A stretch of 64,000 bases of DNA. Source: an uncultured virus (IMG/VR IMGVR_UViG_3300031758_000013) (taxonomy: Duplodnaviria; Heunggongvirae; Uroviricota; Caudoviricetes). A program made the translations under genes and the position numbers. The notes beneath the pieces are model-generated. The model ran no database searches. It was given only the letters and a program-made list of their open reading frames with translations, and was not told the origin of the DNA. The first letter of the stretch is position 1. Each line of letters begins with the position of its first letter. Positions 10,241 through 20,334 of the stretch are shown here, piece by piece. The stretch lies in IMG/VR virus record IMGVR_UViG_3300031758_000013; one strand, written 5' to 3'.

Positions 10241-10732
10241 TTAGAAACGAACGCCGAAGCCTACAAGAGCTCCGTGCTGACCAACTCCACGATCAAAGTC
10301 GGTATAGCGATACTCGACCTTGCCATAGACAGGACCAGCAATGTTGGCTTCAACACCAGCTCCAAGACGCAGGCCTTCGAGTTCAGTCGAAGTGGTCTGC
10401 TTCCAGTTGGCATATCCAACCTTACCATAAACAAGAACAGCGTCCTTGATTACATAGCCAAGGCGAGCAGATGCACCAACATTACGACGATCGAATACAT
10501 TGTCAAGATTTGCTTCAAATCCAACAATAACATTCTTGTAAAGTTCAGCATCGAAACCAACAGCAGCTCCATAAGTAACATCAGTTAGGTCAAGCCGGCG
10601 AGCTGCGACTGGACCAGTAACATCGTCTACTCCAGCAGTCACTTCAGCACGAACACCCGTAAAAGAATTTGCCATGGCTGGAGTTGCAAGAGCGGTGCTT
10701 GCAGTTGCAATTGCAATCATAAAGTTCTTCAT
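10241..10732 (-). CDS. Small outer-membrane beta-barrel protein (OmpA/Omp25-like 8-strand family)
   Basis: Signal peptide ending PAMA, amphipathic strands, KVEYRYTDF, C-terminal GFGVRF BAM signal. Confidence 0.85.
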   Translation of the reverse strand: MKNFMIAIATASTALATPAMANSFTGVRAEVTAGVDDVTGPVAARRLDLTDVTYGAAVGFDAELYKNVIVGFEANLDNVFDRRNVGASARLGYVIKDAVLVYGKVGYANWKQTTSTELEGLRLGAGVEANIAGPVYGKVEYRYTDFDRGVGQHGALVGFGVRF

Positions 10733-10831
10733 ATATATTCACCTTTTGTTGTTAATCAGCGATTGATAGGCTCAATCACCAAAGCCTTCATACAACTGGT
10801 TGATACTCTCTTCCAGTATTCCTTAAACTTG

Positions 10832-10999
10832 TTAATTCTTTGGATAGCGATAGTGGTAAACATCATCAATGTTTTCCCATTCAATATCGCTCAAATCAAG
10901 TGCACTAATATCTTTAAACACTTTATAGCCAAAATAAGATAAAATTCCTATGATGACTACTCCTGCAGCACCGGAAAATATCTTTGTATTTTTAAGCAT
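10832..10999 (-). CDS. Small single-TM protein
   Basis: Start re-called at MLKNTKIF after a GGAGA RBS; hydrophobic segment. Confidence 0.55.
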   Translation of the reverse strand: MLKNTKIFSGAAGVVIIGILSYFGYKVFKDISALDLSDIEWENIDDVYHYRYPKN

Positions 11000-11011
11000 T
11001 AATATCTCCAT

Positions 11012-11306
11012 GAATAAAGCGAAGTGGAAGGATTTGGTTGTACCTTCAAGACCCAGCCAATTACCTATGTAATCTCGGTCTACAACTCGTTTGCTGGTTG
11101 AGCAGGAGGACCACTCCCCGAGTTTTGCCTTACTCCCACTGGCGAGGGAGTTATTCAGCCACACTTCTTACGTAGCCCGTCGGCCACGATATCTAAATGA
11201 GTGTAATGGCTACTGAGGTGTCGACTCGCTAGGTCGGTAATTTCGCTCTTTACGTTCCCATCTTCCCCCATATCGCTTGGTCACCACGGGAACTTCCACT
11301 ACATTC
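11012..11306 (-). ncRNA. Candidate ~295-nt structured RNA immediately 3' of tRNA-Asn
   Basis: Terminal stem AGTGGAAG/CTTCCACT and many internal helices; GC-richer than flanks. Confidence 0.6.
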
Positions 11307-11310
11307 AAAC

Positions 11311-11385
11311 TGGCTCCTCAAGATGGATTCGAACCACCGACCAGCGCATTAACAGTGCGCGGCTCTACCGCTGAGCTATTGAGGA
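11311..11385 (-). tRNA. tRNA-Asn(GUU)
   Basis: Cloverleaf, anticodon loop CTGTTAA, encoded CCA. Confidence 0.95.
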
Positions 11386-11419
11386 ATATGATCTTTATAT
11401 TCTTAGTCTACATTATATA

Positions 11420-11617
11420 TCAATTAATGTCAACCGTTTTTAATTCAGCACGAATTTCTTTATAGTGGCGAGTAAGAATTTCGCGAACTTGTTGCTTCTC
11501 AGTAGGAGTTGCAAACTGAACTTCAAAATATAGATTACCATTCATTGAAGATTCACCAGCAGCATTATCTGCATCTTCAAGAAAATCGCTTATGTGTATT
11601 TGTGTTTTGATAGTCAT
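11420..11617 (-). CDS. Hypothetical protein
   Basis: AGGAG RBS, ORF between tRNAs. Confidence 0.6.
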   Translation of the reverse strand: MTIKTQIHISDFLEDADNAAGESSMNGNLYFEVQFATPTEKQQVREILTRHYKEIRAELKTVDIN

Positions 11618-11632
11618 AACAAACTCCTATAT

Positions 11633-11709
11633 TGGTGCCCTTGGCAGGATTCGAGCCTGCAACCATTCGCTTCGAAGGCGAGCGCTCTATCCAGTTGAGC
11701 TACAAAGGC
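11633..11709 (-). tRNA. tRNA-Arg(UCG)
   Basis: Cloverleaf, loop CTTCGAA, CCA; atypical T-loop CTCGAAT. Confidence 0.85.
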
Positions 11710-11714
11710 GTATA

Positions 11715-11751
11715 TGGTGCGGAATGAGAGGGTCGAACTCCCGGCATCCTT
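11715..11751 (-). pseudogene. 3' half of a split tRNA (probably Val)
   Basis: AAGG-ATGCC-GGGAG-TTCGACC-CTCTC-ATTCCGC-ACCA; pairs with the 5' half at 12358-12386. Confidence 0.85.
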
Positions 11752-11757
11752 TGAATA

Positions 11758-11833
11758 TGGTAGGTCCTGACGGGCTCGAACCGCCGACATCATCCGTGTA
11801 AAGGACGCACTCTACCAACTGAGTTAAGGACCC
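11758..11833 (-). tRNA. tRNA-Val(UAC)
   Basis: Cloverleaf, loop TTTACAC, CCA. Confidence 0.95.
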
Positions 11834-12317
11834 GTGACCGATATAATCGGTTGTATTTATTACGTTTTGTATTCTTTTTATTGCGACCACACCATGTATG
11901 TGTTTGAGTATGGCAGTTTGGACATAAAATTTGCAAGTTATCTAATGAATTATTATCACTATTTCCATCTATATGATCCATTTGTAAGGTGAGAGGTTTA
12001 TTGTTCCACTCAGAACCTACACCGCATGCTTCACAATATTCTCCGCGTGTTTCAAACAAATACCGTTTCATGTGCTGTTCAGCAAGAACTTCTCCATTTT
12101 GTATTTGTTTGAAACGTTCTTTCCATTCATATTCACGTTGACATTTATTACTGCAATATTTGGCATTAAACGTCAAGCTTTGGCAATTTGGGCACAGTGT
12201 AGCTTCTTTAGTTTTACGTGAAACAGAATATCTTCCACCTTCGCGATGGACACTTTTATGTCCATTTAGTTTACGATGGTTATCAAATTCTTTGTCGCAC
12301 ACTTCGCACTTGTACAT
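11790..12317 (-). CDS. HNH homing-endonuclease-like protein with N-terminal C2H2 zinc finger
   Basis: YKCEVCDKEF...HKSVH; CxxC ribbons; DHIDGNSDNNSLDNLQILCPNCH; AGGAG RBS and TATAAATA upstream. Confidence 0.9.
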   Translation of the reverse strand: MYKCEVCDKEFDNHRKLNGHKSVHREGGRYSVSRKTKEATLCPNCQSLTFNAKYCSNKCQREYEWKERFKQIQNGEVLAEQHMKRYLFETRGEYCEACGVGSEWNNKPLTLQMDHIDGNSDNNSLDNLQILCPNCHTQTHTWCGRNKKNTKRNKYNRLYRSRVLNSVGRVRPLHG

Positions 12318-12357
12318 ATAAACTCCTTAGCTCAATTACTAAGTTATTTATAATTTT

Positions 12358-12386
12358 AAGGCGCTCTACCACTGAGCTAATCCCGC
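12358..12386 (-). pseudogene. 5' half of a split tRNA (probably Val)
   Basis: GCGGGAT-TA-GCTC-AGTGGTA-GAGC-G-CCTT then abrupt AT-rich sequence. Confidence 0.85.
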
Positions 12387-12391
12387 GAAAC

Positions 12392-12468
12392 TGGTACCCG
12401 TGGAGGGACTCGAACCCCCAACATCCTGGACCTAAACCAGGCGCCTCTTCCAATTGGACTACACGGGC
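12392..12468 (-). tRNA. tRNA-Leu(UAG), short variable loop
   Basis: Cloverleaf, loop TTTAGGT, CCA. Confidence 0.85.
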
Positions 12469-12545
12469 AAGTGACTCCCCACAGTGTGCTTCACTACTTG
12501 GTTGGCCGAACCTTTCACATCGAGAGGCAGGGGGAGTTCTATTAA

Positions 12546-12704
12546 TTACTTAGTTACAGCAACTCTAAGAGTGCCAAGGCCAAGAGCACCAAGAAGTGCA
12601 TATACGTATTCTGGAATAACATAACCTAAAGCTTGAGCAACAGCTAAAGCAATAGTAACTGCAGATACGATATAGGTCTTTTTACCTTCTAAAAATGCCA
12701 TCAT
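12546..12704 (-). CDS. 52-aa two-TM protein, holin-like (MMAFLEGKKTYIVSAVTIALAVAQALGYVIPEYVYALLGALGLGTLRVAVTK)
   Basis: Read by eye; AGGAG RBS and TATAAATA at 12749-12756; not in ORF track. Confidence 0.65.
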   Translation of the reverse strand: MMAFLEGKKTYIVSAVTIALAVAQALGYVIPEYVYALLGALGLGTLRVAVTK

Positions 12705-12762
12705 AGAGTTTTCTCCTTATATTAATAAAGTCTTGCAAGACTCGACTATATTTATATAAGGT

Positions 12763-12838
12763 TGGTGGAGAATAACGGGATCGAACCGTTGACCTTCTGC
12801 ATGCAAAGCAGACGCTCTCCCAGCTGAGCTAATCCCCC
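12763..12838 (-). tRNA. tRNA-Ala(UGC)
   Basis: Cloverleaf with G3:U70, loop TTTGCAT, CCA. Confidence 0.95.
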
Positions 12839-12840
12839 AT

Positions 12841-13110
12841 TTAAATACTTGGTTTATCAACGTTTGCGTTCATAGCTTCCATTGTTTCTAACCGAAGTGT
12901 TTCAATTTCAGATGCAGACGGAACGTAATTCTTTTTATAATTATATTCCATCAATTCATCTTGAGACATAGTCGACTTGAGATCAGAAACTATGAATGCA
13001 AACCGTAATACTTCATTGCTATTTGGATTATACATTGATACAGACTTAAGTCTGGCTTCAGCAATACGAAGATTATCAAATTTACTCATTGCAGATGAGA
13101 CTACATTCAT
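12841..13110 (-). CDS. Hypothetical protein (start re-called at MNVVSS)
   Basis: AGGAG RBS; the longer ORF-track start runs through tRNAs. Confidence 0.55.
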   Translation of the reverse strand: MNVVSSAMSKFDNLRIAEARLKSVSMYNPNSNEVLRFAFIVSDLKSTMSQDELMEYNYKKNYVPSASEIETLRLETMEAMNANVDKPSI

Positions 13111-13134
13111 AATATACTCCTTTGTTGATAAATT

Positions 13135-13208
13135 TGGAGCGGGATACGGGAATCGAACCCGTCTAATCAGCTTGGAAGGCTGGAGCATTACCACTATGCT
13201 AATCCCGC
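13135..13208 (-). tRNA. tRNA-Gly(UCC)
   Basis: Cloverleaf, loop CTTCCAA, U73-CCA. Confidence 0.93.
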
Positions 13209-13215
13209 AGTATTC

Positions 13216-13291
13216 TGGTGCCCCCACGACGACTCGAACGCCGGACCTACGCATTACAAGTGCGTCGCTCTACCAACTGAGCTATAAGGGC
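13216..13291 (-). tRNA. tRNA-Thr(UGU)
   Basis: Cloverleaf, loop CTTGTAA, CCA. Confidence 0.95.
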
Positions 13292-13335
13292 TTACGATAT
13301 GTTCTATCGCTATTTGTGTTCTTTGCTTTATTAAA

Positions 13336-13412
<77 letters not shown>

Positions 13413-13432
13413 TTATTATCTATATATAAAGC

Positions 13433-13506
13433 TGGATGCCCCTCTAGGACTCGAACCTAGGTTGACGGATTCAAAGTCCGCTCTCTTACCACTAGAGGAA
13501 GGGGCA
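13433..13506 (-). tRNA. tRNA-Gln(UUG)
   Basis: Cloverleaf, loop CTTTGAA, U1:A72, CCA. Confidence 0.93.
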
Positions 13507-13513
13507 ATAAACT

Positions 13514-13598
13514 TGGTGGACCCCGTGGGGCTCGAACCCACGACCTTTTACAGATCGGTTTTACAGACCGATTGCCGAAACTATCGACTTTAAGACCC
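13514..13598 (-). tRNA. Atypical tRNA-Tyr(GUA)-like cloverleaf whose 3' 33 nt also match the split tRNA-Lys 5' half
   Basis: ATCGGT-CTGTAAA-ACCGAT anticodon arm and long variable arm; acceptor GGGTCTT/GGGGTCC has four G:U pairs; no U8 or D-loop GG. Confidence 0.55.
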
Positions 13599-13614
13599 CT
13601 TATTCTATACACCC

Positions 13615-13719
13615 TATCGGTTAACTCCATTCTAGATCGCGGTAAGGAATCCGATATTCGCCAGCGTTCCCCGTCTGTTAGTCTGGCTAGGTCTCTCCGG
13701 CAGTTTCTAGAATACCGGA
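13615..13719 (-). ncRNA. Candidate ~105-nt three-hairpin RNA with kissing loops
   Basis: TCCGG/CCGGA, GCCAG/CTGGC and TATCGG/CCGATA stems; loop sequences ATTCTAGA and TCTAGAAT are complementary. Confidence 0.5.
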
Positions 13720-13725
13720 TAATTC

Positions 13726-13801
13726 TGGTGATCCAGGTGGGGTTTGAACCCACGACCTCGGGTTTAAAAGACCTGTGCTCTACCTACTGAGCTACTGGAT
13801 C
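13726..13801 (-). tRNA. tRNA-Lys(UUU)
   Basis: Cloverleaf, loop CTTTTAA, CCA; one A-C mismatch in the anticodon stem. Confidence 0.9.
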
Positions 13802-14353
13802 GGTTATTTCTTTTAGAATATAATCTATAAATGTTTTTTTGTCAACTAGTTTTTGATAATCTGACCATTTGATACGAACAATTTTCCAACCTAAATTTTC
13901 TAGATATTCGTTTCGTCTTTTATCACTAGTAACAACTCTTCCATCTAAATAATGTTGGTCGCCATCAATTTCTAAATCAATATTACCTATAGCAAAATCC
14001 AATTGATAAGGACCAACTTGAAATTGTTCTACATATGAAACATCGTGTGAATCTAGAATTCCTTTCCAATATTCTTCTGGATAAGATCTTCCTTTAGAAT
14101 AGTGATTTAACTTATATGGTACCATATCAGGATTTTCTCTAAGAAATTTTATTCTGCTTTCGCTAATTTTTTTCTTAGTCTCTTCAGACAGTGGTCCACG
14201 TTTTTTGTTAGCATCACTCCACTTTTTTCGTGTTTCTTCTTTTATCTCCGGCTTAGATAGTCCTTCAACTTTTGCTTTAGTATATTGATTTGTACCATTG
14301 CCGCGTCTAGCAGCCATAGCAGCATACCATTTTTCGCTCTTAGGTTTACTCAT
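13784..14353 (-). CDS. NUMOD3-like + DUF559/Vsr-like (EDxHD-type) endonuclease
   Basis: SEETKKKISES repeat; EQFQVGPYQLDFA..LEIDGDQHY..DKRRNEYLENLGWKIVRIKW. Confidence 0.85.
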   Translation of the reverse strand: MSKPKSEKWYAAMAARRGNGTNQYTKAKVEGLSKPEIKEETRKKWSDANKKRGPLSEETKKKISESRIKFLRENPDMVPYKLNHYSKGRSYPEEYWKGILDSHDVSYVEQFQVGPYQLDFAIGNIDLEIDGDQHYLDGRVVTSDKRRNEYLENLGWKIVRIKWSDYQKLVDKKTFIDYILKEITDPVAQ

Positions 14354-14395
14354 ACCAGTCTCCTTACTAGTATTTATAAATTTAGAGCATTCAAC

Positions 14396-14431
14396 TAAAG
14401 CCCGTTGCTCTACCTACTGAGCTAGGGGTCC
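14396..14431 (-). pseudogene. 5' half of a split tRNA-Lys
   Basis: GGACCCC-TA-GCTC-AGTAGGTA-GAGC-A-ACGGG-CTTTA, broken in the anticodon loop. Confidence 0.85.
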
Positions 14432-14443
14432 ATTTAGTTGAAT

Positions 14444-14527
14444 TGGTGCGGGCGGCGGGACTCGAACCCGCACGGATCTCTCCACAAGATTTTAAGTCTC
14501 GCGCGGCTACCATTACACCACGCCCGC
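14444..14527 (-). tRNA. tRNA-Leu(UAA)
   Basis: Loop CTTAAAA, long variable arm, CCA. Confidence 0.92.
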
Positions 14528-14691
14528 GTGATTTAACCTAAGCGGTTTCTTCCTGCTTCAGGCGAGCGTATTCTTTCATAGCCCACTGAAAATCACCCGG
14601 TCGCAGAGCGCCCGAGTTTGCGGCCTGAGTGAACAGGCGGTCCAGCATTTCGCTCATCTTTTCCATAACAATCTCCATTCCGTATATTCTT

Positions 14692-14720
14692 AGTATAGTA
14701 TATTTTCAATATAATGTCAA
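14692..14720 (-). promoter_or_regulatory. Early promoter TTGACA-17-TATACT (family also at 9244, 10144, 11405, 19055, 19472, 20070, 28634, 38551)
   Basis: Near-consensus sigma70 promoters with shared flanking sequence. Confidence 0.75.
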
Positions 14721-14733
14721 CTAAAAAAACATA

Positions 14734-15009
14734 CTAGAACAGTAATGCGATAATAATTGCTACCAGCACTGGGCCTACAAGGCCGAGTCGCCGCGGAAAG
14801 GTATCCCACACTCTCAAATCAAATCCACCCCACCATGGCATCGATGCTCGAAGCTTATCGAGTGTATATCTTTCAATCCAACGATATTCTGCTTGAGCAT
14901 GCTCGCGACCTAGGTATAATGAGACTACTGCTAGTCCACCAATCCACCAATTACCAGTTGCAACACCTACTGCTATTTGGATTATTGCTGTTACTAAAAT
15001 ATGAATCAT
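14734..15009 (-). CDS. Membrane protein
   Basis: Hydrophobic segments; YLGREHAQAEYRWI motif. Confidence 0.65.
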   Translation of the reverse strand: MIHILVTAIIQIAVGVATGNWWIGGLAVVSLYLGREHAQAEYRWIERYTLDKLRASMPWWGGFDLRVWDTFPRRLGLVGPVLVAIIIALLF

Positions 15010-15036
15010 TGTGTTATTCCTTCACTGATCATGTGA

Positions 15037-15390
15037 TTAAGATCTTGATTGATTGCTTGTGTGCCATTGACCATATGAACAGTGAAGAAATTCATGACCC
15101 ACAAATTCTGGTTCATATTTAACAGTTGGTTTCACCATATGGATGGTGCATACATCAAAGGGAGCTCGTAATTCGCTAAACGCTACTATTTCTGTATCAT
15201 TAACGCCTTTAGCTTTAGCAGATGCAAGTAATTCTTTTTGTGTATTGTAAGTTACAACATTAACAAGAACCTGTTGTTTTTCATACTGTGGTGTACCAAA
15301 TTGATAACCATCAGCTCCAGTATTAGGAACTGGTTTGCATGAAGCAACAATAAAAGCAAATAACGTTACTGTAAAAAATTTGTTAAACAT
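15037..15390 (-). CDS. Putative lipoprotein with HExxH motif
   Basis: Lipobox VASC; GHEFLHC; late promoter at 15409-15416. Confidence 0.65.
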   Translation of the reverse strand: MFNKFFTVTLFAFIVASCKPVPNTGADGYQFGTPQYEKQQVLVNVVTYNTQKELLASAKAKGVNDTEIVAFSELRAPFDVCTIHMVKPTVKYEPEFVGHEFLHCSYGQWHTSNQSRS

Positions 15391-15446
15391 AAAGCAGTCC
15401 TCCTATATTATTTATAGGATTATACTGACTACCAATTCATGTTTAT

Positions 15447-15505
15447 AGTCCAAGATTTTATAAAAAAGTCTTATGTTTCCTGCTTTATTTATAAAATCTT
15501 GGACT
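15447..15505. repeat. 18-bp perfect inverted repeat overlapping a late promoter
   Basis: AGTCCAAGATTTTATAAA (15447-15464) / TTTATAAAATCTTGGACT (15488-15505). Confidence 0.8.
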
Positions 15506-15510
15506 CTATG

Positions 15511-15597
15511 AGGAAGCGGTGGGATTCGAACCCACGGTACCCGCAAAGGTACGACAGTTTTCAAGACTGTATCAATCGACCGCTCTGACACGCTTCC
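15511..15597 (-). tRNA. tRNA-Ser(UGA), CCA not encoded
   Basis: Loop CTTGAAA, long variable arm, canonical T-arm. Confidence 0.88.
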
Positions 15598-15654
15598 AAA
15601 GTTGAGGAGCTAACCGTGGCCCCTCGCGTGCTTATTAGGTAGCAACCCCATAAC

Positions 15655-15731
15655 TGGTGCGTCTGGCAGGTCCTGACCCTGCGACCTCAGAGTTATCAGC
15701 ACATGTGCTCTGCCAACTGAGCTACAAACGC
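15655..15731 (-). tRNA. Degenerate tRNA-Ile(GAU) (possible pseudo-tRNA)
   Basis: Acceptor, D-arm and CCA intact; anticodon stem mispaired; T-loop GTCAGGA. Confidence 0.6.
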
Positions 15732-15791
15732 ACATAAAGAGTTTCTAACGATGTCAAAGAGCAAGTTGGCGAGGGTGCCAGAATAGAAAAG

Positions 15792-15865
15792 TGGCGAAGG
15801 TGCAAGGATTCGAACCCTGACTAACGGAGTTGGAAGCCGTCGTGCTACCGTTACACTACACCAAC
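15792..15865 (-). tRNA. tRNA-Trp(CCA), with acceptor mismatches
   Basis: Loop TTCCAAC, G73-CCA; two T-T mismatches in the acceptor stem. Confidence 0.65.
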
Positions 15866-15884
15866 GAACTTTTATTTATACAGT

Positions 15885-16328
15885 TTAATGTAAATGACGA
15901 ACTGCGTGATCAGCAGCATGAGTAGCAGCGAATGAAGAAGGCTTAATCTTGGCATCAAGACCAAGAGAACCCTTCACCCAACCGAGCGCTTCCTTCACGG
16001 CAATACTCGACTTGTGCTTTGGATTCGGGTTGATGTCTAGATGGATCTCTATATGCCTGTTGCCGACTATTTCAATGATCTCAGTGGCCACTGAGACTGC
16101 CATCTGAACTTCCATAAGTAACCTTTGCTTAAGATTACCATAATCTGGCATATCAATAGACTCATGAAACAGCTTGCATCCGTGCTTCGAATCCATATGA
16201 ACAATTACAACCGTGCTATACTTAGCATACCACTGCTCATTTTTATGAAAGCGAATAGAATCGCATCCAATATAAATTGAAGACTGTTCACTAGATTCTA
16301 GAATTGCAGCCTTAGCTTGTTCAATCAT
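15885..16328 (-). CDS. RNase H-like YkuK/DUF458 family protein
   Basis: IYIGCDS, RLLMEV, IHLDINP, AATHAADH. Confidence 0.8.
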   Translation of the reverse strand: MIEQAKAAILESSEQSSIYIGCDSIRFHKNEQWYAKYSTVVIVHMDSKHGCKLFHESIDMPDYGNLKQRLLMEVQMAVSVATEIIEIVGNRHIEIHLDINPNPKHKSSIAVKEALGWVKGSLGLDAKIKPSSFAATHAADHAVRHLH

Positions 16329-16333
16329 TACTG

Positions 16334-17089
16334 TTACTCGCGTGAAAACAATCGATAGAAAAATGGATCAAATTGTTCAGGTGATGTTTTAACATATTGT
16401 TCTAAAGATCGACCATACAGATCAATACCTTCATCGATACATTTTTGTATGTGATTAGTATCTGTAAATTGTGGGGTATTCATTTCTCGATGAGAAGACG
16501 CCTGAATCTTCTCGCGAATCTTTTCTACGCTACCCCAGTGCGATAAATGCCATCCGGCTTCTGTAATGGGTGGATATGTGTTGCGCATATCTCTATACTC
16601 TTGCGGCTTCTTCTGCCGCATCTCGCGTGCTCGAGTAACAACATTGCCATACCATTGATTCAACGCTATTTGATTTAGATTATAGTAGTGTAAATCTTGA
16701 ACTAGAGTGACTGCTACAGATCGATCTAATTGATCGATAGCTTTATCAATACCACTAAAACTGGGGATTTCATCTATATCACCCATGATTACATAGTCAT
16801 TAGGATCTAGAAGTGACATTGCTCGCTGTAAATTGTTACGTTGAAAATGTTCTACACCCCAGTATTTTTGTGCTAACACGGGAGAAGCTACACACGGTAA
16901 ATAGATAATTCGATCCATGTAATATGCATATCGATCGATATTATCGATAAAATTGTATCTCTTTGGTTGACCACTAAAAGTCATATTACATTCAGAAATA
17001 ACAAAGTAATTTACTTTTTTAAACAGAAATTCTAGTCTAGATTCTAGAAGATCATATTCATTAAAAAATGTAAAACAGTCTACAATCAT
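16334..17089 (-). CDS. Glycosyltransferase family 17-like protein
   Basis: DCFTFFNEYDLL, TFSG.PK, EHFQRN, GDIDEIP, GWHLS. Confidence 0.85.
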   Translation of the reverse strand: MIVDCFTFFNEYDLLESRLEFLFKKVNYFVISECNMTFSGQPKRYNFIDNIDRYAYYMDRIIYLPCVASPVLAQKYWGVEHFQRNNLQRAMSLLDPNDYVIMGDIDEIPSFSGIDKAIDQLDRSVAVTLVQDLHYYNLNQIALNQWYGNVVTRAREMRQKKPQEYRDMRNTYPPITEAGWHLSHWGSVEKIREKIQASSHREMNTPQFTDTNHIQKCIDEGIDLYGRSLEQYVKTSPEQFDPFFYRLFSRE

Positions 17090-17261
17090 ACTATGCTTAC
17101 TTTTTTAAACTTACCACACCAACTATTAGATTTTATACGAGGATAACAATTATTTAAATCTTTAATATAAACAGGAGGATCATATCTGCAGATGCCTATA
17201 TTAATATCATTATCATAAGCATCTTTATGCAAAAAGGCATAAAAGAAACAGTCCTCACAAG

Positions 17262-17795
17262 TCATACGGATCTCTCTAAAACTGTAAAGCCATGGCAATG
17301 AATATTGTGAGATCTTACTCTCCAATGTTTATTACAGGCAAGAAATTCCATAATGGCTGGTAGAAGTTCTCCACCAAAAGGTTTATCAGTATCATGAAAA
17401 GCGAGGAACCGGCGAGCTTTATGCCCGTGTAATCTGAGCTCCTGCGATAACTGTTGATATGTATGATCAGTATCGATAAACAAAAGATCGGTTGGCTCGA
17501 TGTCAATTGCTAAGGTATCACCTTTAATATATCGATGATCTCTTCCAAGACTTCTTGATTTTTCGAAAAGAGCTTCTACTTGTGGATCGAGCTGTAGATC
17601 ATAAGCTCGTACGATACAAGCTTCTGTTAACAGTGCTCGAGTAGAAACACCAGTTCTTGTTCCCATTTCTGTCACGTGATCACACACAGAAGCAAGAGCT
17701 CTGAGCATGGGTAAATGTATATTAATATCAGATGGAGTTTCAACAGCCCATCTATAGTGAGCTTCTAACTCTTGTTCAGTAACATTCATTTTCAT
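17262..17795 (-). CDS. Class I SAM-dependent methyltransferase (Methyltransf_24-like)
   Basis: TEMGTRTGVS, DLLFIDTDHTY, AFHDT. Confidence 0.8.
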   Translation of the reverse strand: MKMNVTEQELEAHYRWAVETPSDINIHLPMLRALASVCDHVTEMGTRTGVSTRALLTEACIVRAYDLQLDPQVEALFEKSRSLGRDHRYIKGDTLAIDIEPTDLLFIDTDHTYQQLSQELRLHGHKARRFLAFHDTDKPFGGELLPAIMEFLACNKHWRVRSHNIHCHGFTVLERSV

Positions 17796-17824
17796 ACCTT
17801 ATTAAGGTGAGTGCGTGACAAAAT

Positions 17825-17899
17825 TGGTAGACGAGGAAGGACTCGAACCTTCACCCAAGCCGTTATGAGCGACCGGCTCCACCTTTGAGCTACTCGTCC
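17825..17899 (-). tRNA. tRNA-CAU (Ile2 or elongator Met)
   Basis: Loop CTCATAA, CCA; no initiator features. Confidence 0.85.
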
Positions 17900-18095
17900 G
17901 TTAGCTGTATTTACATGAGAAGTTTTGGAAGCTCAATTGCAACACTGTGCGCCATCCATCCAACAACAAACCAGGTAAAAGCCGCTGGCTTTGTTGAATT
18001 GTGTTTCTTTACGTCACTAATTCCAAAATAAGCATTTAAAACTAAAAAAAATATAAGACCAAATAGCCAAACCATATTGTCTCCATAAGTTAAAT

Positions 18096-18172
18096 TGGCG
18101 CGCCCGGCAGGACTCGAACCTGCTACCTCAAGATTAGAAGTCTCGCGCTCTATCCAGATGAGCTACGGGCGC
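18096..18172 (-). tRNA. tRNA-Arg(UCU)
   Basis: Cloverleaf, loop CTTCTAA, CCA. Confidence 0.95.
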
Positions 18173-18180
18173 ATTCTGCA

Positions 18181-20334
18181 TTATGCAATACGATTAATAC
18201 GATGTAGAAGATTAGCTACCTTGGACAATTCATCTGATGTATTAGCTGTTAACGGAGTACGTCGTAACACCTCCGTATATGCATACAAAGCGCGCTTTAA
18301 AGTTTTCATATCAGCAGTGGCAAATGCGCCGCCTTTTGCTTCTTTAATCATGTTACACACTTCCTCGATTCAATTAGCCAAGTATTTGCACTGTCCATCC
18401 AATCGAGAGCTTCCACAGGAATTAATTCTCCACGACGCTGAGCATTCAGAATTTCGCAGTAAGTAAATTCTACATCCTTAGGATTTTCCATAGTAGGAAA
18501 CGAGTATACTTCAACTTCCATAGCAACCTCCATATATATTATATATCACTTACTCGTAAAACTCTTGATCAACATTAGCAAAATTATAAAAACAGTTACA
18601 GCTGCAATTGGAATCCACAGTGGTGAAAGCACCCACCACCAAGACCATGCGATATATCCAGTGAGCTTCAGTGTAATAAAGATCAAAGTAAGAACTGGGA
18701 TCCATGGAAATGATATTGCAATACTTGATTTAGACATGAGTTCTCCGGCGATAAACAGAAAAGTGCGTAGCATCAGCCATCAAACAATCCCGATTGGCTT
18801 GACTCCGAGTGCGGCGATAAGTACGGCCAGCTTCGATACAAGGCATATCACGTCCGACTGAAGCTGCACGCGAACCACGGAAACGAATTTTAATAGGAAT
18901 TCCTTCTTCACGATAGGCCGCCAGAACACGTTGGCGAAGTGCAATGGGAACCCAATAGGCAACAGCGTATTGGCCACGAGGAGCGGGGAAGAGCGTTTGA
19001 AGAGCCTGGATTTCAGCATTCGACATAATGTTTCCTTTCATTTCGTATATTCTCAGTATAGTGCATTTTGAAAAAAATGTCAACTAAAAATCACGCAGCA
19101 AAAAGAAACTTTGCATGTTCTTCTGAAGTCTTATAGAGCTTACCACCCTTTTCGTAGATGAACGGCATCTTGTACTTCTTAGAATCGTAACGAACCAGCT
19201 TACAACCGTTCTTTTCCATGACAAGACCGAGAGACTTCACACGAGATTCGAGAATGGCATCGCTGAAAGTCTTAGCACCCTTCACCTTAGCCGAAACCTT
19301 GATCTGAACTTCAGAATCAGAGAACTTCATCGAACCAACTTCGAACTGAAGATTCGAATCAACACCGTACTTAGCGAGAACATGTTCCATTTCAGCACGG
19401 AGAGCGACAAGGTTCTTACGATCAAACTTTTCAAACTTAGTCATGATATATTTCCTTCAGTTGATATATTCATTATATACAAGATAGAATTAATGTCAAC
19501 AATTATTTTTCAACGCTAGCAATTTTTTTGCTCTTTGAACTACCCATGGATCAAATGAAATACGTATTCATTGTACGTTTTCCTTCATAAGAGTTTTGAT
19601 AGATCCATACTTCAGATTGAAGTGCCATTCGAGACGCTCATATCCATACCACTGATACGAATCAAGCTCGCCTTCAGCATCAGCGATGATTTCAACTGCG
19701 CGTTCTGCATCACAGTTGCAGAGCTCCATGGTTTCACGAACACGTGATGCGAACTTTTCAAGGTTCGCAGCCTGACGAATTTCTTCTTCAGCCTGTTGCT
19801 CATTGAGCTGGCTGATAAGAAGCTTGAAGTCTGCATCAAACTCTTCAACCGACTTAAAGGCGGCGGTGCGCGGACGGATGCCATACACGTCCTTGTACAG
19901 GTCCGAATAGACGTCGCCATCGTAGCTGTTGGTGGCTGCATTGATATCAGTAAGACTGAGCATTTTCGGTTCCTCGATTTCGGCCATACGGGCCTGAACA
20001 GCAGAAACGTTGATGAAAGGGTCGATGTAATCAATCTTGGTCATGTCAGTTTCCATTCCTTATATTTTTAGTATAGTATATTTTGAAAAAAATGTCAATA
20101 CGAAATATGCTGCTGAATGCCTTCAATACGAGGCGAAATCTTTTTGGCAGAGAACTGCATGCCATTGATCTCGAAGAAATGTCGGCCGGTGATTGGTCCA
20201 GTCTTTTCCCAGCGAAGCTTTAGAGCTTCACCTTCACGATAAGGACTAATGCCAGCGGTCCAAGACCGGCCGGTCTTGAGTTCAAAAGCTCCACCGCAAA
20301 GATTAATAATCATGTTGTTTCCTTCATTCCTCAT
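18181..20334 (-). other. Cluster of small early hypothetical genes (incl. 18348-18533, 19091-19444, 19568-20044, 20095-20334)
   Basis: Short minus-strand ORFs, several with their own TTGACA/TATACT promoter. Confidence 0.6.

Follow-up and report, generated by a model that had tools for sequence, protein, structure and literature searches.

How do the two ends of a transfer RNA (tRNA) gene come to lie apart, with a nuclease gene and a complete tRNA of the same isotype between them? The question is raised by positions 13,514 to 14,431 of a 64,000-nucleotide (nt) stretch of DNA from an uncultured virus, IMGVR_UViG_3300031758_000013, referred to here as the window; all features of this tRNA-Lys cassette lie on the minus strand. 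A preliminary description of the locus had presented the two pieces as a split tRNA-Lys or, alternatively, as decoys for anticodon nucleases. The comparative analysis reported here favors another answer. Very probably, a free-standing homing-endonuclease cassette has broken a resident tRNA-Lys(UUU) gene and brought a spare tRNA gene with it, the two halves being scars without function.

The interrupted tRNA-Lys gene

The 5' piece (GGACCCC..ACGGGCTTT) comprises the acceptor strand, the D arm, the 5' strand of the anticodon stem and the CTTT of the anticodon loop. The 3' piece (AGGTC..GGGGTCCACCA) comprises the variable loop, the T arm, the other acceptor strand and the terminal ACCA. The acceptor strands GGACCCC and GGGGTCC are exact complements. 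An IMG/VR scan with the 3' piece retrieved two related contigs, L008 and L009, in which an intact 76-nt tRNA-Lys(UUU) gene is identical to the pieces at 67 of 68 positions (34/35 for the 5' piece and 33/33 for the 3' piece). An intact gene of the kind that the preliminary description had suggested looking for in relatives does exist, and related intact alleles are found in nine further loci (within L027-L043). Since the pieces match the intact gene of L008 and L009, the complementarity of their acceptor strands is not fortuitous. By this match the pieces are identified as the two ends of one resident tRNA-Lys(UUU) gene, interrupted after the first anticodon bases. Their common origin had been correctly proposed; the 5' piece itself had also been recognized but was drawn one base too long, position 14396 being a base of the insert and 14397 the true end. 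Between the pieces, 8 nt of the intact gene (TAACCTGT) are absent; with them the anticodon stem has lost its 3' strand and the loop one half.

The nuclease gene and the whole tRNA-Lys(UUU) announced between the pieces were both located (Table 1). The acceptor stem of this spare tRNA is GATCCAG/CTGGATC and its anticodon stem CAGGT/ACCCG, both unlike those of the outer pieces. The outer and spare D arms agree at 19 of 19 positions; the T stems are likewise the same, with two differences in the T loops. These likenesses and differences, like the exact acceptor complement, agree with what had been reported from the window.

In relatives the gene order is Leu(UAA) - small open reading frames (ORFs) - Lys(CUU) - Lys(UUU) - Tyr - Gln - Pro - Thr - Gly. 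Uninterrupted tRNA-Lys(UUU) genes stand in a comparable tRNA order in L008, L009, L043 and others, none of which is a near-identical sibling of the window's phage. A 26-nt pattern of the 5' stump searched in IMG/VR and a pattern of the Leu-Lys junction searched in metagenome contigs each matched contig G001 only, which is 100% identical to the region over 2001 nt. No joint across the cassette was seen in contigs of runs X11-X14 over positions 13000-15200, although these contigs are short, drop rare variants and are uninformative about absence. Megablast of the region against cultured phages returned only short tRNA stretches, in 5 records.

The nuclease

The ORF between the pieces is preceded by a Shine-Dalgarno sequence and codes for a protein of 189 residues. 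It matches the Pfam family DUF559 (PF04480) with 29.2 bits for a cut-off of 20.6, and MTES_1575 and RAP match as well. All 11 aligned relatives match both DUF559 and MTES_1575. A profile of these 11 relatives finds the DUF559 structure PDB 3hrl with an E-value of 8.9e-6. The same profile finds 3r3p_A, annotated as 'mobile intron protein' and which we take to be I-Bth0305I, with an E-value of 9.8e-6, the single sequence reaching 0.01. The relationship to 3r3p is weak but reciprocal in region (residues 88-167). Residues D119, E128, D130, G131, Q133 and H134, in the active-site region, are invariant across the 11 sequences. The label 'NUMOD3-like/DUF559' given to the protein earlier is thus upheld for DUF559. 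For NUMOD3 there is a sub-threshold hint, at 12.2 bits (E-value 0.18) for a cut-off of 20.4, with an E-value of about 0.004 in two of the 11 relatives. The similarities to DUF559 and 3r3p make it plausible that the protein is a homing endonuclease.

The last 18 nt of the ORF overlap the spare tRNA-Lys(UUU), which supplies the final codons and the stop, so that the stop codon TAG sits in the D loop of the tRNA. Upstream, the ORF is preceded by a leader (AGTTGAATGCTCTA..TATAAATA) ending in a motif, TATAAATA, that presumably corresponds to the T4 late-promoter motif. This motif occurs 15 times in the window, always on the coding strand, against 5.8 expected.

Recurrence of the layout

A profile-guided scan of IMG/VR with the nuclease yielded 58 loci, 57 of them other than the window's own contig. 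In 51 of these 57 a same-strand tRNA gene lies directly beside the ORF. The neighbor is a tRNA-Lys gene in 36 of the 42 loci with at least 42% identity and in none of the 15 more distant ones, which adjoin Asn, Ser, Tyr or Met genes instead. Among cultured phages, relatives of the nuclease precede tRNA-Arg(UCU) in a Klebsiella T4-like phage, with the same GCTCTA..TATAAATA leader, and tRNA-Met in a Rhizobium phage.

Eight loci (L072-L079, L074 and L075 being alike) contain full-length relatives, in which the match spans nearly the whole protein at 56-67% identity. In all eight the ORF overlaps or abuts a complete tRNA-Lys(UUU) gene (-32 to 0 nt), and a conserved leader with a TATAAATA-like box stands upstream of it. 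In all eight, as in the window, a tRNA 5' stump precedes the leader and breaks off 2-4 nt into the anticodon loop; in the relatives the stumps were identified by eye. The acceptor strands of these stumps (GAACTCT, GATCTCG, GGGTTAT, GGACTCT, GGACCGT and GGACCAT) differ, which indicates separate resident genes. The same layout recurs around different resident alleles. Some stumps are decaying: that of L076 carries an internal deletion and that of L079 has lost its acceptor strand. Behind the spare tRNA, 3' stumps complementary to the 5' stump of the same locus were recognized in L073 (CGAGATC ACCA) and L076 (T arm and AGAGTCT ACCA); none was recognized in four of the eight loci.

Several side observations concern these loci. 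In L078, a tRNA-Lys 3' stump (..ATGGTTC ACCA) lies after the spare tRNA-Lys, at about 1850-1925, and is the complement of the stump GGACCAT upstream. Fused in front of it is the 5' half of a different tRNA-like sequence (GCGCCAG..), with a join that appears to fall within the anticodon loop, and no ARAGORN call was obtained for the fusion. Many of the tRNA-Lys(UUU) genes beside the nucleases of L011/L073, L012/L074, L016, L017, L018, L076 and L078 are 82-89 nt long, with an extended variable region (e.g. CGCGAAAGCATTGTC) and odd D arms, while the stumps that they replace are of the canonical 76-nt type. The anticodon arm of the window's spare tRNA recurs in a nuclease-free tRNA-Lys of L045.

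As the preliminary description had noticed, the same architecture occurs a second time in the window with an unrelated nuclease. This second cassette (12386-11715, minus strand) follows the same plan with an HNH nuclease, whose ORF runs into a complete tRNA-Val(UAC). The acceptor strand of its 3' stump pairs with its 5' stump except for one G-U pair. Among the loci compared, no intact relative of its outer tRNA was present. The claim of a general strategy holds as one of a selfish element, with the layout present in eight of eight full-length relatives, and finds no support for split tRNAs.

The conserved element and the Tyr/Lys chimera

The make-up of the ~180 nt before the 3' stump had escaped the preliminary description. 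They consist of a conserved non-coding element of ~125 nt and of the 5' two-thirds of a tRNA-Tyr-like gene. The 26-nt core of the element is found exactly in 19 other IMG/VR loci (L024-L043), among which the element is nearly invariant. It always lies within a tRNA array, with varying flanking tRNAs. Nine of the 19 loci have an 84-85-nt tRNA-Tyr(GUA)-like gene after the element, with tRNA-Gln behind it; in nine the element is succeeded by other conserved non-coding sequence, and in one the contig ends. The gene order Lys(UUU)-(element)-Tyr-Gln is found in relatives. Its hairpin 1 shows two covarying pairs (alignment A1) and its folding energy is not unusual (z -0.38). No Rfam match was obtained for the element in the window or in the relatives' regions, no exact copy of a 20-nt core turned up in 185k prokaryote genomes, and blastn of the element and chimera against cultured phages gave nothing but a 33-nt tRNA-like match. 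One extra IMG/VR locus, L055, retrieved with a looser gapped pattern of the element, proved to be an unrelated coding stretch.

The Tyr-like 5' part consists of the acceptor strand GGGGTCT, a D-like arm of 5 base pairs and a 5-nt loop, an anticodon arm whose loop is CTGTAAA and the start of the variable region. It is homologous to the 84-85-nt gene of L028, L032, L034, L041, L042 and L043. This gene has the same 5-base-pair/5-nt D-like arm, a T stem of 4 base pairs and odd T loops (ATCGATA or AGCGTAA); its D-loop and T-loop variants seem to change together. It received no ARAGORN call in the seven relatives scanned and no Rfam tRNA match in the two tested. Its cloverleaf is supported by covariation: 96.6% of the alignment cells are paired and 11 of 26 pairs have changed on both sides, while slid controls are paired at 36-49%.

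In the window, the tRNA-Lys 3' stump exactly replaces the last third of this gene. At the junction the window reads GATCTGTAAAAGG followed by TCGTGGG, the Tyr relatives GATCCGTAAAGG followed by GAGTGG and tRNA-Lys CCTGTAGG followed by TCGTGGG; the bases GTAAA(A)GG are shared at the join, and the 9-mer TCTGTAAAA is present twice, 13 nt apart. The preliminary description had named as its refutation that in nuclease-free relatives 13514-13546 would be the normal 3' end of tRNA-Tyr. The outcome is mixed: nuclease-free relatives do have a Tyr 3' end before tRNA-Gln, but the window's own sequence at this place is the 3' end of tRNA-Lys. The resulting chimera (13599-13514) scores 24.9 bits as a tRNA, below the Rfam cut-off of 29. 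Set in tRNA register, it forms an acceptor stem with three G-U pairs and one mismatch, and in the minimum-energy fold the CCA tail is partly paired. It is probably not a working tRNA. Within the window there is no other Tyr-type anticodon arm or copy of the element, so that the tRNA-Tyr-like gene has probably been lost from this phage.

Layout of the locus

The window codes for a T4-type DNA polymerase, a portal, a tail sheath, a terminase and a long tail fibre (PHROGs), and by this gene content its source is assigned to the T4-like myoviruses, as an uncultured T4-like freshwater phage. The coordinates of the two cassettes and of their neighbors are collected in Table 1. Two further features were observed along the tRNA array. 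A tRNA-Ile(GAU)-like sequence (15658-15731, minus strand) scores 44.2 bits in Rfam and receives no ARAGORN call; its odd T loop (GTCAGGA) and badly paired anticodon stem may point to a tRNA gene in decay. A manA RNA motif of Rfam lies beside the array (11017-11188, minus strand) and scores 66 bits for a gathering score of 55.2.

Table 1. Features of the tRNA-Lys cassette, of the second cassette and of neighboring genes (window positions unless a locus is named)
Feature	Position	Strand	Evidence or remark
tRNA-Leu(UAA), upstream neighbor	14527-14444	-	ARAGORN; Rfam 53.9 bits
5' stump of resident tRNA-Lys(UUU), 35 nt: GGACCCC TAGCTCAGTAGGTAGAGCA ACGGG CTTT	14431-14397	-	34/35 vs L008/L009
Cassette leader AGTTGAATGCTCTAAATTTATAAATA	14396-14371	-	Kept upstream of related nucleases
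TATAAATA, T4-type late-promoter-like motif	14378-14371	-	
Free-standing nuclease ORF, 189 residues, DUF559/Vsr-like PD-(D/E)XK domain	14353-13784	-	Pfam; profile match to 3hrl, 3r3p
Complete spare tRNA-Lys(UUU)	13801-13726	-	ARAGORN; Rfam 71.2 bits
Conserved ~125-nt non-coding element	13725-13600	-	26-nt core exact in 19 other IMG/VR loci
First 53 nt of tRNA-Tyr(GUA)-like gene (5' two-thirds)	13599-13547	-	Homology to 84-85-nt gene of relatives
3' stump of resident tRNA-Lys(UUU), 33 nt: AGGTC GTGGG TTCGAGC CCCAC GGGGTCC ACCA	13546-13514	-	33/33 vs L008/L009
tRNA-Gln(UUG), downstream neighbor	13506-13433	-	ARAGORN; follows tRNA-Tyr in relatives
5' stump of a tRNA, second cassette	12386-12360	-	
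TATAAATA, second cassette	12352-12345	-	
HNH/zinc-finger endonuclease ORF, runs into tRNA-Val	12317-11790	-	
Complete tRNA-Val(UAC), second cassette	11833-11758	-	
35-nt 3' stump, second cassette	11749-11715	-	
Tyr-like gene copies in relatives	L028:1588-1672; L032:1355-1439(-); L034:1588-1671; L042:1588-1671; L043:1355-1439(-)		

Alternative explanations

A functional split tRNA, whose pieces would be transcribed and either paired through the acceptor stem as a two-piece tRNA-Lys or joined, is highly improbable. The two pieces alone do co-fold into the acceptor, D and T arms (-31.8 kcal/mol), and the layout recurs. However, the 8 missing nt deprive the anticodon stem of its 3' strand and the loop of one half, and the flanks bring no additional complementarity: a duplex of the 50-nt flanks reaches -12.0 kcal/mol for a shuffle mean of -14.1, with 215 of 300 shuffles at least as good, and the longest flank complement is 4 nt. 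Moreover, the 3' piece now forms part of another tRNA-like gene, the stumps decay or go unrecognized in relatives (the 5' stump is truncated in L076 and L079 and the 3' stump was not found in half of the full-length loci) and a complete tRNA-Lys(UUU) is already present. Restoration of tRNA-Lys by removal of the whole insert from the RNA, as a new kind of intron, has next to no probability, although bacterial group I introns in tRNA genes classically occupy the anticodon loop. Rfam gave no match to a group I or II intron over 9 kb (10500-19500) at E-values up to 1, nor over the 281 nt of 13480-13760 at E-values up to 10, the latter covering only the 3' side of the insert. The joined exons would still be short by 8 nt, and a complete tRNA, a conserved element and a portion of a further tRNA all fall within the insert.

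The second function considered in the preliminary description, in which the anticodon-less halves would absorb host anticodon nucleases such as PrrC, which targets tRNA-Lys, is extremely improbable. The pieces lack an anticodon stem-loop, the very part on which such nucleases act, the stumps are not conserved but decaying in relatives, and the arrangement with a fused 3' piece is seen in one phage only. In its favor stands the known use of phage tRNAs to counter tRNA-cutting defences, as outlined for Septu, which cuts tRNA-Tyr and which T6 escapes by amplification of a tRNA-Tyr gene (PMC13096335). A mis-joining of reads across similar tRNA genes during assembly also has to be considered: tRNA arrays are repeat-like, and among the run contigs compared, which are short, no independent one was seen to bridge the 3' junction at 13546/13547. 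It is nevertheless judged very unlikely, given the 2001 identical nt of contig G001, the contigs of runs X11, X12 and X13, from three studies, that cross the 5' junction with 0 differences, and the same layout in 8 other loci.

Proposed course of events

The insertion of a free-standing homing-endonuclease cassette into tRNA-Lys(UUU) can be pictured as follows. During a mixed infection, the nuclease would cut the nuclease-free tRNA-Lys(UUU) gene of a related phage near the anticodon. Repair of the break would copy the nuclease gene along with its adjoining tRNA, and the 5' stump and the 3' half of the spare tRNA would be available as homology arms. The insertion would be cheap, nearly neutral and able to persist because the spare gene keeps the phage supplied with tRNA-Lys(UUU). 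The right join would have been unclean: the copied stretch would have continued through the element and two-thirds of the Tyr-like gene, and its junction with the tRNA-Lys 3' stump would have formed at a few shared bases, giving the Tyr/Lys chimera. Two orders of events could account for this junction. In a single event, a stretch comprising the nuclease, the spare tRNA-Lys, the element and the Tyr 5' part would have been joined by microhomology to the 3' half of the cut gene. This presupposes a phage with tRNA-Lys directly before tRNA-Gln, an order that was seen in no relative. Alternatively, a clean insertion would have been followed by a later rearrangement.

Several points weigh against this homing scenario. 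The 3' stump of the window follows the element and the Tyr part, whereas it lies directly after the spare tRNA in the second cassette, L073 and L076; the displaced stump therefore makes the history dependent on a resident Lys-Gln order or on two events. Only its acceptor stem, its anticodon stem and two bases of the T loop distinguish the spare tRNA from the target, while the D arm, the anticodon loop, the variable loop and the T stem are common to both, which leaves unexplained how it would be immune to the nuclease. The chimera still folds in a cloverleaf-like manner, so that it may have some residual function. Finally, no near-identical sibling phage with an uninterrupted gene was found, the nearest intact genes being those of more distant contigs.

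Comparison with known systems

In the split tRNAs of the archaeon Nanoarchaeum equitans, leader and trailer sequences of the halves are complementary, and the splicing endonuclease joins the two. As in the window, one tRNA is encoded in separate 5' and 3' parts, divided near the anticodon; in the window, by contrast, the flanks are without complementarity and 8 nt are missing. I-Ssp6803I belongs to the group I intron of a cyanobacterial tRNA-fMet, where the element sits in the anticodon loop and self-splicing restores the tRNA. The resemblance to the present case lies in the restriction fold of the homing endonuclease and in this location of its element. It differs in being intron-encoded, the window cassette having no Rfam intron match and leaving the gene broken. 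I-Ssp6803I is cited as a PD-(D/E)XK endonuclease carried by a bacterial tRNA group I intron in a study of Vsr-like homing endonucleases (PMC2677866).

The latter, as presented in the same account, include free-standing genes inside conserved phage genes as well as genes in recA introns (PMC2677866). The Vsr-like endonucleases of 'fractured genes' and of the recA intron of phage 0305phi8-36 come closest in type of protein and in their tendency to break up genes. Like the window's nuclease, those of the fractured genes have their own control elements, lie in the middle of a conserved gene and come mostly from phages. The genes that they interrupt code for proteins and are repaired by split inteins (PMC2677866), whereas here a tRNA gene is left unrepaired and a whole spare is supplied.

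The closest system in behavior is SegB of T4 and T6, a free-standing endonuclease of the tRNA cluster that cuts tRNA genes (PMC2330249; PMC13096335). According to these reports, its gene also lies inside a T4-like tRNA array, and SegB also targets tRNA gene sequence, spreads with the neighboring tRNA genes and drives tRNA gene rearrangement. It has a GIY-YIG fold instead of the DUF559/Vsr-like one, recognizes a T-arm motif of many tRNA genes and sits between genes. The window cassette lies inside the anticodon loop of one gene, whose stumps remain, and a replacement tRNA of the same isotype is fused to it. What sets it apart from SegB and the Vsr-like systems is that neither splicing nor trans-splicing is involved and that a fused replacement gene is carried instead. 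In the literature consulted, mostly through titles and abstracts, no cassette of a nuclease and a spare tRNA inside a tRNA gene is described.

Implications for phage tRNA arrays

Because it carries a whole replacement gene, a selfish nuclease would be able to settle in an RNA gene intolerant of insertions without a self-splicing intron. It is conceivable, though still doubtful, that such break-and-replace cassettes form a general class of mobile elements in phage tRNA arrays, whose homing endonucleases are a major driver of tRNA allele turnover and of the formation of chimeric tRNAs. If so, the unrelated DUF559/Vsr-like and HNH nucleases would each have reached one design, i.e. an insertion in the anticodon loop with a tRNA of the same isotype, the first bases of which finish the nuclease ORF. 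Sloppy right joins would shuffle pieces of tRNA genes, as in the window's combination of the Tyr 5' two-thirds with the Lys 3' third and in the fusion of L078. Variant spare tRNAs with an altered anticodon stem or a long variable arm might escape host defences that cut tRNAs. The DUF559/Vsr-like subfamily and tRNA-Lys(UUU) offer a concrete and testable pair of nuclease and target. Overall, cassettes of this kind would account for stray tRNA fragments, for isotypes present in duplicate and for unusual variants in phage tRNA arrays, and such fragments should not be taken for split or permuted tRNAs. The Tyr/Lys fusion suggests that these events can also destroy or recombine the adjoining tRNA genes.

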